Source: a virus. Taken from it: 17,538 nt of DNA. The first letter of the stretch is position 1; every line of letters begins with the position of its first letter. Shown in pieces: positions 15,438-17,538 of this stretch. The translations under genes were made by a program, and so were the position numbers. A model generated the notes under the pieces. That model made no database searches, was not told the DNA's origin, and was given only the letters and a program-made list of their open reading frames with translations. The stretch lies in UHGV virus genome UHGV-0202355; one strand, 5' to 3'.

Positions 15438-15635
15438 TCATTGATAATGATCATTTATTTTAACGCAGCATCTAACAGCGTCGACAATTTCACAGACCTG
15501 AGAGGCTGTATCGAAAAGCTGACGCGCTTTATCCAGGCTGACGCATCCCACCAATAAAAAAGGCACCAGTATCTCTACCAGTGCCCATTTCGCCGCCGTT
15601 CGCGGCATTCTGTGCGTCCAGTGTTTTCTGCTCAT
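15438..15635 (-). CDS. putative small lipoprotein (signal peptide with LLVGC lipobox), about 65 aa precursor
   Basis: Internal ATG 15635, 15 nt after the endolysin stop. Translation MSRKHWTHRMPRTAAKWALVEILVPFLLVGC|VSLDKARQLFDTASQVCEIVDAVRCCVKINDHYQ has a basic n-region, a hydrophobic h-region and an L-V-G-C lipobox. Not Pro-rich, so not a typical o-spanin. Confidence 0.45.
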   Translation of the reverse strand: MSRKHWTHRMPRTAAKWALVEILVPFLLVGCVSLDKARQLFDTASQVCEIVDAVRCCVKINDHYQ

Positions 15636-15649
15636 AACACACCTGGTTA

Positions 15650-16027
15650 TCAGCGTTTCAACTGAAAGTGAGGCCCGTCTTTCAGTGTTTTCCAGTCCCC
15701 GCCCCATTCGATGGCAGTCCCCAGCTCTGCAGCAGCCTGCTTAAATGCCTGCGCGATTTTCTCGTACAGAGGCCAGTCCCATGACACCTGGCTGCCAATG
15801 TAGGCCACAACATCCACCGCATCACCGGTCAGGTGGCGGCTGTTCATGGTCTGGCTTTTCCCTTCCGCGACCAGCTGTTTCTGGCGATACTTACTGCGCA
15901 GGCCTTCCGTAATACCGAAATCAACCTCCGTCAGCTCCAGCGCACGGCGAACGACAGCAACCAGCTGTGGTTTAACGCCCTCCAGATTCTTTTCGCTGCG
16001 ACGACTAAATCTGAATTTACCCGACAT
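15650..16027 (-). CDS. endolysin, peptidase M15 family (L-alanyl-D-glutamate endopeptidase-like), about 125 aa, no signal peptide
   Basis: Zn-peptidase-like motifs (SRHLTGDAVDV, DWKTLKDGPHFQL) in a small soluble protein directly downstream of two membrane-protein genes. Start at ATG 16027; the ORF-track start at 16033 is GTG. Confidence 0.8.
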   Translation of the reverse strand: MSGKFRFSRRSEKNLEGVKPQLVAVVRRALELTEVDFGITEGLRSKYRQKQLVAEGKSQTMNSRHLTGDAVDVVAYIGSQVSWDWPLYEKIAQAFKQAAAELGTAIEWGGDWKTLKDGPHFQLKR

Positions 16028-16029
16028 AT

Positions 16030-16305
16030 TCACCTCAACAATGGAAAGATTTTTGTGACGTTCCCGCGTGCGCGTATCACCAGCACGCAGAACAGCAGGT
16101 TAAAAAACACTTCCAGCCAGCCCGTTGCTAACGGGCGACCACACAGATAGCTGAGGGGCGCAAAGGCATACAGCAGCATCAGCAGCCAGGCCAGCCATGA
16201 CATCAGCGGTTTATGTCTGGAATCACGGCGACGATAAAAAAAGAGCGTCAGCACGATAACCGTGCATAACGCCACATTCAGTAATCCGGGAAGGTTACTT
16301 AACAT
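16030..16305 (-). CDS. small 3-TM membrane protein, holin- or antiholin-like, 91 aa
   Basis: Internal ATG 16305 preceded by GGAGGAGG at 5 nt, overlapping the upstream gene by 11 nt. Three hydrophobic segments (LLNVALCTVIVLTLFFY, LMSWLAWLLMLLYAFAPLSYL, WLEVFFNLLFCVLVI); lies between the putative holin and the endolysin. Confidence 0.6.
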   Translation of the reverse strand: MLSNLPGLLNVALCTVIVLTLFFYRRRDSRHKPLMSWLAWLLMLLYAFAPLSYLCGRPLATGWLEVFFNLLFCVLVIRARGNVTKIFPLLR

Positions 16306-16687
16306 TGCCGCCTCCTCCGCCACGCAGACGGGAGAACAGGCCGGACACCAGTGATGCAATATCCTGCTGGTGGATGAATGACAGAATCTTCACCGACACC
16401 ACTGACACCAGTACTGCACACAGTGCGTCAACAGGTGCACCGTCAAACCCTGTATGCTTTACCAGCCAGGATGCCAGAACCTCTGCGCCCAGCACGCCGA
16501 TAATGAACGACACCAGAAAATGCGCCGCCACACGCCAGGCTGAAAGCGCCTGCGGCATCGTTGCCACAAATAACGCCCCGGCGAACGCACCAAACACAAT
16601 CCCGAAATCCGTTCCGGTAAACAGCCCGAATACCGTCGCCCCACCGAGCGCCGCAGCCGTGCCGGAACCGGACAAGGGTTCAGACAT
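16295..16687 (-). CDS. putative holin (Gly-rich multi-TM membrane protein), 130 aa
   Basis: First gene after the terminator cluster. AGGAGA lies 7 nt upstream of ATG 16687. Several hydrophobic Gly/Ala-rich segments and a charged C-terminal tail. Confidence 0.6.
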   Translation of the reverse strand: MSEPLSGSGTAAALGGATVFGLFTGTDFGIVFGAFAGALFVATMPQALSAWRVAAHFLVSFIIGVLGAEVLASWLVKHTGFDGAPVDALCAVLVSVVSVKILSFIHQQDIASLVSGLFSRLRGGGGGNVK

Positions 16688-16704
16688 ACTTTTTTCTCCT
16701 GTAA

Positions 16705-16728
16705 ATAAAAAAGGGCCGCCAGCGGCCC
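16705..16728 (-). terminator. intrinsic terminator immediately upstream of the lysis cassette
   Basis: Minus strand reads GGGCCGC-UG-GCGGCCC followed by UUUUUUAUUU; plus-strand hairpin 16713-16728, A-run 16705-16712. Confidence 0.65.
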
Positions 16729-16815
16729 GTAATAAAACACCCCGTCGAAGGCATCCACCGATGTCTTTTATGTGATGTATTCAGATTCAATACACGTTGA
16801 GTGAAACGCAGATAT

Positions 16816-16839
16816 AAAAAAGGCCCGCCGCAGCGAACC
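16816..16839 (-). terminator. intrinsic terminator, related in sequence to those at 16705 and 15126
   Basis: Minus strand reads GGUUCGC-UGCG-GCGGGCC (two G-U pairs) followed by UUUUUUAU. Confidence 0.5.
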
Positions 16840-16861
16840 ATAAAGAAACGAGATTCTGAAT

Positions 16862-16887
16862 AAAAAAAACCGCCGGATACGGCGGTT
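16862..16887 (-). terminator. strong intrinsic terminator
   Basis: Minus strand reads AACCGCCG-UAUC-CGGCGGUU followed by a U-run of 8; plus-strand hairpin 16868-16887, A-run 16862-16869. Confidence 0.7.
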
Positions 16888-17248
16888 GGTCAATGCAAGA
16901 AATACATTCTTAATTGTAATAAAACCGAGGTGTCGGGTGCCTCCCGAAGTATTCCGTCCTGTATGAATACTGTGATTTCCCGTTAAACCGACTCTTTTAA
17001 CCACCCTCGCTCTGAGGAACACCCCGGTGGTGTTATTTACAACACCAGAATGATGCATCACCGACCCTGCCAGGAAATACAAAATCTCCACCAGCAATGC
17101 ACCATTCTGCTGTCGCAGAAAAATCAGCACTGAGGCTAACCTGGCCTCAAATCATAGCCAGAGAACAGAATGCTTTTTCAAAACAACCTGCTCCCACGTA
17201 ATAAAAAATACGCCAGTGCTGCAATACAATAAGGCTTATTTCAAATGC

Positions 17249-17323
<75 letters not shown>

Positions 17324-17326
17324 ATA

Positions 17327-17402
<76 letters not shown>

Positions 17403-17538
17403 ATTGGTTCCTCAGGAAAAATAAAAATGACCGCGCTTTACATCTCCCTTGGAACCGCAGGGAATATTAATGAGGACAGATACTTTTTCAATTAAAAACT
17501 GTGTCAATATTCGTAAATATATGTATAAATTTCTATTA

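Follow-up and report, generated by a model that had tools for sequence, protein, structure and literature searches.

The 17,538-nt window analysed here, from the virus genome UHGV-0202355, holds in its lambdoid prophage late region a lysis cassette whose genes all lie on the minus strand and whose last member, a small lipoprotein, is the main subject of this study. The cassette encodes, in order, a holin-like membrane protein of 130 residues (16295..16687), a second holin-like protein of 91 residues (16030..16305), a soluble protein of 125 residues predicted to be an M15 L-alanyl-D-glutamate endopeptidase endolysin (15650..16027) and a prolipoprotein of 65 residues (15438..15635). This order of two membrane proteins, an M15 endolysin and a small lipoprotein had been read from the window sequence in the initial annotation and is borne out by Pfam and PHROG matches. 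It is no chance arrangement, since the four genes recur as a set in 75-78 of 80 related contigs of viral origin, whose endolysins are 97-100% identical to that of the window and whose 6-kb neighbourhoods were scanned.

The first gene, present in 75 of the 80 loci, encodes a protein with three to four transmembrane domains (TMDs) that matches Phage_holin_8 (PF16931, E=1.2e-22, 80.7 bits against a gathering cutoff of 26.4) and the holin family phrog_198 (E=8e-43). The second, present in 78 loci, encodes a protein with three TMDs that matches Phage_holin_3_7 (PF05449, E=6e-22, 77.9 bits against a gathering cutoff of 25.4) and the holin family phrog_217 (E=1.5e-38), and its topology is predicted to be N-out/C-in, given a positively charged first loop and a basic C-terminal tail. 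The ATG of this second gene is preceded by a good Shine-Dalgarno sequence, GGAGGAGG, and the gene overlaps the stop of the first by 11 nt; the two form an overlapping pair in nearly all relatives. Both proteins are small, have a charged C-terminal tail and are encoded upstream of the endolysin, and profile matches together with the TMD scan predict both to be of holin type. A dual-start motif is present in neither gene. The two may be a holin/antiholin pair, as the initial annotation proposed, but the endolysin and lipoprotein are also found together behind a single S-like holin.

The endolysin matches Peptidase_M15_4 (PF13539, E=1.6e-12, 48.2 bits against a gathering cutoff of 25) and phrog_465 (E=2e-75), and likely starts at ATG 16027, giving 125 residues, rather than at GTG 16033, giving 127. 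Its relatives in the PDB are 23ri, 8q2g and ChiX (5opz), with E~1e-43, and it is 59% identical to ChiX, the crystallised L-Ala-D-Glu endopeptidase of Serratia; the segments SRHLTGDAVD and DGPHFQL align with ChiX, and the metal-binding motifs H-x6-D and the C-terminal His are kept. The N-terminus is hydrophilic and contains no signal or signal-arrest-release (SAR) sequence. These features place the protein among the M15 L-Ala-D-Glu endolysins of the T5 Lys and ChiX type. The kinship with ChiX, which belongs to a type 10 secretion system in Serratia, ties this lysis module of toxin phages to domesticated holin/endopeptidase secretion cassettes.

The lipoprotein gene begins 14 nt past the endolysin stop: its open reading frame (ORF) spans 15438-15707 and the real start was assigned to the ATG at 15635. 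The product has a predicted signal peptide of 30 residues (15546-15635), a lipobox LVGC with the lipidated Cys at position 31 (LLVG/C), and a mature part of 35 residues, CVSLDKARQLFDTASQVCEIVDAVRCCVKINDHYQ, which contains four Cys (among them Cys48, Cys56 and Cys57) and no Pro, confirming the earlier description of a Cys-containing lipoprotein that is not Pro-rich. Residue +2 is Val in the window and V, A, T, E or G in relatives, and under the E. coli +2 sorting rule the protein would be placed in the outer membrane. The signal peptide is the sole hydrophobic segment, the C-terminus (...RCCVKINDHYQ) being hydrophilic. In most relatives the mature part is 30 residues, compared with 35 in the window, and the family consensus is CVSLDKARQLFDTASQVCEIVDGVRQCMQN; counted from the lipidated Cys, Cys1 and Cys18 are invariant in the family alignment and Cys27/28 nearly so, and these residues may form disulfide bonds. 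A heptad-spaced hydrophobic stripe (L4, A7, F11, A14, C18, V21, L28) runs along the mature peptide, of which the net charge ranges from -4 to +2 across the family, again with no Pro. The AlphaFold (AF2) model is a single long helix with a predicted local distance difference test score (pLDDT) of 74-80 in the mature part and a low predicted template modelling score (pTM) of 0.29, which makes it useful as a secondary-structure call only.

The lipoprotein belongs to phrog_7528, a family of unknown function (E=2.6e-33, profile positions 1-58 of 60; the phiP27 homologue has E=7e-37). There is no Pfam match at E<=0.1 and nothing in NCBIfam or PADLOC; no match was found to Bor, Lom, Ail/Lom, defence or antiholin families or to the colicin lysis family PF02402, and the only hit of a profile search against the PDB, to a designed repeat protein, was spurious. 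The family is small, with 139 clusters at 90% identity, and the members named by source come from Escherichia, Salmonella, Citrobacter and Cronobacter. A HMMER profile search of 1.84 billion representatives (50% identity) returned 23 members and did not connect them with any family of known spanins. In the literature searched on spanin-less and orphan outer-membrane spanin systems, nothing was found about lipoproteins of this type.

Over 44 unique alleles the ratio of nonsynonymous to synonymous change (dN/dS) is 0.21 in the mature part and 0.31 in the signal peptide, which indicates that the gene is under purifying selection; a few truncated or fused alleles occur in databases. The synonymous divergence (pS) is 0.17 in the signal region and 0.40 in the mature region, and the signal peptide, M-x-R-K-H-W-T-H-R-x-P-R...ALVAILVPFLLVGC, with a basic n-region of 16-17 residues, is better conserved than the mature peptide, which is unusual among exported proteins. 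In part only, this conservation is explained by a terminator-like hairpin with a T-run that lies within the signal-peptide codons (15561..15586, minus strand; GGGCACTGGTA-GAGA-TACTGGTGCCT). In a terminator scan and RNA folding this hairpin has an energy of -17.9 kcal/mol and a z-score of -5.5, and among 27 unique relatives the synonymous sites of the stem are nearly invariant, the rare changes preserving pairing (G.U).

Spanins were sought by listing the ORFs of both strands exhaustively, with each possible start codon allowed, and scoring each ORF for a lipobox, an N-terminal TMD and a C-terminal TMD. The scan covered the window, the complete genome of the Stx2e phage phiP27 (the nearest phage, 94% identical in DNA over the holin and endolysin genes), the closest complete E. 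coli prophage (L097, inserted between potB and potC and 92% identical over 90% of window positions 9000-17538) and the 80 related loci. In the window the lipoprotein is the only lipobox ORF; there is no ORF with an N-terminal TMD and a periplasmic domain, the form of an inner-membrane spanin subunit (i-spanin), none with a lipobox and a C-terminal TMD, the form of a unimolecular spanin (u-spanin), and no embedded outer-membrane subunit (o-spanin). Neither an i-spanin nor a u-spanin ORF was found in the whole of phiP27, in the L097 prophage or in the 6-kb neighbourhoods of the 80 contigs, and across all four sets the scan yielded, lipoprotein aside, only out-of-frame shadow ORFs, StxB and Lom. 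PGAP, the NCBI pipeline, annotates no spanin in two complete prophages. The absence of an Rz/Rz1-like pair, which had been claimed for the window, is thereby upheld in complete related phages and prophages as well. The lipoprotein itself has the lipobox and the Val at +2 of an o-spanin, without a cognate i-spanin, and its mature 35 residues in one predicted helix fall short of the length at which the periplasmic domains of a spanin pair join both membranes.

One published listing, from a dedicated spanin survey, formally touches the condition under which the initial annotation would have its claim of no spanin pair refuted. Kongari et al. 2018 (PMC6139136) describe phiP27 as having a 'separated' two-component spanin, the shortest of all with 62 periplasmic residues, and their supplement places the i-spanin at 20348-20542 (64 residues) and the o-spanin at 20706-20861 of NC_003356. 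The phiP27 o-spanin is the homologue of the window lipoprotein (86% identity over 59 residues, same PHROG). The i-spanin ORF sits on a stretch of about 490 bp (phiP27 20187-20675) that is absent from the window, and the ORF is absent from 44 of the 80 related loci. On the opposite strand the same stretch carries a 90-residue ORF with a full-length match to phrog_36812 (E=5e-20); the 64-residue 'i-spanin' is TTG-initiated, lies antisense inside this gene and matches nothing. In another variant of the insert the reverse gene is retained at 46% identity over its full length, and the forward frame shrinks to 36 codons. The published i-spanin is probably no more than the shadow ORF of a moron read from the other strand, and cassettes of the phiP27 type probably carry an orphan lipoprotein. 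The claim that there is no spanin pair survives because the phiP27 i-spanin is missing from the window and from 44 of 80 relatives and runs antisense to a conserved gene. The published start of the o-spanin (MPRTAAKW, 51 residues) is also probably too short, given that Met10 is not conserved in the family and the upstream M-x-R-K-H-W-T-H-R is. In summary, the lipoprotein is already known, as the listed phiP27 o-spanin, but is misfiled and has no partner.

In all 80 related loci the lipoprotein gene follows the endolysin, directly in 44 and behind variable inserts of roughly 230-700 bp in 36, and it is intact in 78. Small ORFs flanking the four-gene core recur in only 9-13 of the 80. Insertions concentrate where endolysin and lipoprotein meet, with at least 8 insert classes in the 36 loci (for example phiP27 20187-20675 and L027 3511-3786); among them are a reverse-strand phrog_36812 gene, a gene for a 93-residue soluble protein, and tail-anchored peptides such as ...AAAFAIRLVAVAVLIWAVRWW, which abuts or overlaps the lipoprotein start. 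None of the inserts in the 36 loci encodes an i-spanin-like protein, and as i-spanin candidates they were rejected, the reverse-strand product and the 93-residue protein being soluble and the tail-anchored peptides having at most 3 periplasmic residues.

More divergent lipoproteins (43-64% identity) begin 3-6 nt past an M15 endolysin, behind a single holin of the lambda-S type, and others follow an endolysin of the GH108/PG_binding_3 type, including that of E. coli PSS-15, which has the same two holins as the window. The carriers also differ in their tails, that of phiP27 being Mu-like and contractile and that of the window lambda-like. On these comparisons the lipoprotein gene travels with the lysis module, independently of holin family, endolysin chemistry and receptor specificity, which argues both against a role in receptor masking and against an obligate partnership with either holin. 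The Stx phage GER2 retains the lipoprotein gene as a frameshifted remnant (MG710528, 3488-3681) downstream of a classical S-R-Rz cassette, evidence that modules were exchanged in the past.

Transcription signals likewise place the lipoprotein with the lysis genes. The terminator scan places three terminator-like hairpins on the minus strand shortly before the first holin gene (16887-16868, 16839-16822 and 16728-16713), an arrangement that fits a Q-antiterminated late operon, and in the closest complete prophage a Q antiterminator lies upstream of the same transfer RNA (tRNA) genes and cassette. No promoter-like site is present between endolysin and lipoprotein. Given the 14-nt gap without such a site, the three terminators upstream and the one hairpin inside the gene, the lipoprotein is predicted to be made from the antiterminated late transcript only. 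The same signals, with the lack of a Pfam match, speak against the lipoprotein being a Bor- or Lom-like conversion protein, a possibility that had been raised as fatal to a lysis role.

Comparison with known systems suggests what the position after the endolysin may mean. Lambda Rz/Rz1 and Serratia chiY/chiZ share with the window the slot directly after the endolysin and an outer-membrane lipoprotein with periplasmic Cys. In Serratia, the genes after chiX encode a classical pair, its i-spanin overlapped and its o-spanin Pro-rich (chiWXYZ, type 10 secretion system; PMC4259817), and the holin of the divergent relatives is of the same lambda-S family as ChiW (PMC4259817). In a Yuavirus, too, the endolysin (66% identical) adjoins an annotated spanin. 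As homologous endopeptidases (ChiX and that of the Yuavirus) adjoin classical spanins, this slot appears normally to be one for outer-membrane disruption, and the simplest reading would be that the spanin pair was replaced non-orthologously by the lipoprotein. The window cassette differs from the Rz/Rz1 type in having no inner-membrane subunit and a mature lipoprotein too short to bridge the periplasm; mature Rz1 is Pro-rich with 40 residues, whereas the mature proteins of this family are helical and Pro-free with 30-35, and there is no sequence similarity to the o-spanin of the chiWXYZ locus. Nor is the cassette itself a type 10 secretion system of the chiWXYZ kind, as it lies in a prophage late operon and is followed by terminase, portal, capsid and tail genes.

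Other envelope-active proteins resemble the lipoprotein in part. T1 gp11, a unimolecular spanin, is likewise a single gene in lysis-cassette position with an N-terminal lipoprotein anchor, but the window protein has no C-terminal TMD and its periplasmic part is a helix of about 30 residues rather than a longer beta-rich domain. The disruptin gp28 of the spanin-less phage phiKT is a small amphipathic helical cationic peptide of antimicrobial type, proposed to breach the outer membrane (bioRxiv 10.1101/515445); by contrast the window lipoprotein contains Cys, has a near-neutral or acidic charge, and is exported by a type II signal peptide to carry a lipid anchor. With colicin lysis lipoproteins and entericidin B it shares a mature lipopeptide of about 30 residues (its size fits the 28-35 of colicin lysis proteins), a link to envelope permeabilisation and an unusually conserved signal peptide; it differs in lacking a PF02402 match, in being helical and Cys-rich, and in its place in a phage late operon with holin and endolysin.

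Taken together, these observations make it about an even chance that the lipoprotein is a partner-less outer-membrane lysis factor acting at the last step of a lambdoid prophage late-operon cassette. Of the two roles that the initial annotation offered, an atypical lysis factor or an exclusion factor, late co-transcription with the lysis genes makes the first the best reading and the second is weakened. In such a scheme the holin or holins would make the inner membrane permeable and let out the endolysin, which would destroy the murein. The lipoprotein would by then have been exported, lipidated and sorted by the Lol system to the inner leaflet of the outer membrane, where it would stand as a Pro-free amphipathic helix of about 30 residues, probably in a disulfide-linked oligomer. 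With the murein gone, turgor would push the inner against the outer membrane, and the anchored helices could engage and destabilise or fuse the bilayers. As with spanins, the outer-membrane step would have to wait until the murein is degraded, but no inner-membrane subunit would take part.

Several points weigh against this role. A helix of 30-35 residues measures about 5 nm and cannot span the intact periplasm; the peptide, with a net charge of -4 to +2, is not cationic, unlike the spanin-free disruptor gp28; and the mature part diverges more quickly than the signal peptide, which would also suit an arms race and hence a role in exclusion. The partial prophage SerU-LTIIb (KU052038) has the same two holins and a GH108-type endolysin, followed by the LT-IIb toxin genes, and no homologue of the lipoprotein was found in the 6.8 kb covered of this partial record; it is the only relative seen without one. 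Finally, spanin-defective lambda lyses in shaken, low-Mg2+ cultures, and a phage can therefore persist without an outer-membrane factor, which makes the argument from the slot circumstantial.

A further, tentative possibility, itself rather doubtful, is that the lipoprotein is the founder of a third class of outer-membrane disruptor, a one-gene, 65-codon 'mini-spanin' without a separate inner-membrane protein. In one version the lipid-anchored, disulfide-linked helices, once the murein is removed, may enter the inner membrane lying against them and cause the two bilayers to fuse or rupture. In a bolder version, some of the precursor may stay uncleaved and be held in the inner membrane by its long conserved signal anchor, where it may pair with the mature outer-membrane form in parallel orientation, joined to it by the four-heptad helix and by Cys-Cys bonds in register, such that one gene may supply both halves of a SNARE-like bridge.

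It is also possible that the lipoprotein is a late accessory (moron) product, which would block superinfection, prevent adsorption to debris or act as a conversion factor. Such roles are known for small lipoproteins of the outer membrane that contain Cys, and T5 Llp and Cor are outer-membrane factors of the type that blocks superinfection or prevents adsorption. The mature peptide diverges quickly (nonsynonymous divergence, pN, 0.45 between two divergent alleles), the family is limited to a few enterobacterial genera, and the stretch from lysis genes to terminase is a moron hot-spot. However, this is unlikely for several reasons: first, genes that mask a receptor should track the tail, and the lipoprotein is constant across differing tail and receptor modules. 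Second, true morons nearby are found in 9-13 of the 80 loci, compared with 78-80 for the lipoprotein. Third, a gene without its own promoter, behind terminators, would not be expressed in the lysogen, and no Bor, Lom or defence-family match was obtained.

The hallmarks of an o-spanin in the lipoprotein (a lipobox, a +2 residue other than Asp, Cys in the periplasmic part and a gene that follows the endolysin), together with the phiP27 listing of Kongari et al. 2018, could instead mean that it belongs to a true pair whose partner was missed, lying outside the window, being a holin that doubles as i-spanin, or being the 64-residue phiP27 ORF. This is improbable. That ORF is absent here and from 44 of 80 relatives, and lies antisense to a conserved PHROG gene without being kept alongside it; neither phiP27 nor the complete close prophage encodes a type-II membrane protein with a periplasmic domain; and the lipoprotein is kept where a single S-like holin replaces both holins, so that neither holin can be an obligate partner. 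Furthermore, the periplasmic parts of the phiP27 pair add up to 62 residues, far fewer than in any other listed spanin.

The conservation of the signal peptide over the mature part, and the long basic conserved n-region, raise another alternative, in which the lipoprotein regulates lysis, either as a brake or timer on endolysin or holin (antiholin-like) or through an active signal peptide as in colicin release. Stable signal peptides carry part of the activity of colicin lysis lipoproteins of similar size, and the present cassette has no dual-start antiholin. Such a role is nevertheless very unlikely, given that the hairpin with its frozen synonymous sites accounts for part of the signal-peptide conservation, that neither PF02402 nor an antiholin family is matched, that the lipoprotein also occurs behind a GH108-type endolysin and is not specific to one enzyme, and that the Cys pattern of the mature part is under selection. 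That the ORF is a decaying remnant or a chance frame, leaving the cassette without an outer-membrane step, is extremely improbable: the frameshifted copy in GER2 and the few truncated or fused database alleles would suit it, against an ORF intact in 78 of 80 loci with dN/dS of about 0.2, a conserved lipobox and Cys, and a PHROG match at E=2.6e-33.

Downstream of the lipoprotein lie a gene for a Cys-rich soluble protein of 68 residues (15173..15379, minus strand; phrog_4298, with a C-x2-CC-x2-C end and no TMD, hence not an i-spanin), present in 13 of the 80 loci, and a gene for a 93-residue protein (14812..15093, minus strand; phrog_33497), present in 9, which in some relatives lies between endolysin and lipoprotein. 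Both were considered as partners of the lipoprotein and rejected, being soluble and sporadic. Beyond them the window continues with a DUF1441 small-terminase-like gene, a gpA-type terminase, a lambda-family portal, a ClpP/capsid fusion, gpZ, a tail tube and a tape measure; in the fusion, one long ORF (6937-8940, minus strand) encodes both a prohead protease domain of ClpP type and the domain of a major capsid protein, as it does in the NCBI annotation of related prophages. Upstream of the cassette ARAGORN identifies tRNA-Thr(TGT) and tRNA-Gly(TCC) (17249..17402, minus strand). At this position phiP27 and STEC276 have tRNAs and stx2e, and SerU-LTIIb has the same tRNA-Gly/tRNA-Thr pair, its toxin genes lying downstream of its endolysin; the window contains no toxin or cargo gene. 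Complete phage genome records with the cassette are those of phiP27, phiSTEC1575-Stx2k and vB_Apl-pPE4. The last (PP818812.1) is labelled as a phage of Actinobacillus pleuropneumoniae and has an E. coli-type cassette with 90% DNA and 98% endolysin identity, and its host label or isolate purity looks doubtful.

The reading of the lipoprotein as a partner-less outer-membrane lysis factor bears on the 13-15% or so of phages of Gram-negative hosts that have no recognisable spanin, for which the cationic peptide gp28 is the sole alternative mechanism in the literature searched. It also carries a correction to that literature, as the 'shortest known two-component spanin' probably consists of an orphan lipoprotein and an artefactual i-spanin call. 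The cassette is common, being matched in 373 of 5,426 complete genomes of E. coli, which is its host. A 2025 study found that a holin gene immediately downstream of stx2e is required for induced Stx2e release in porcine Shiga toxin-producing E. coli (PMC12571312); that holin may be of the same family as the 130-residue protein. A related two-holin cassette, without the lipoprotein, adjoins LT-IIb in SerU-LTIIb. The cassette with the lipoprotein is found in medically relevant converting phages, those of Stx2e (phiP27) and Stx2k, in which the release of toxin depends on lysis.

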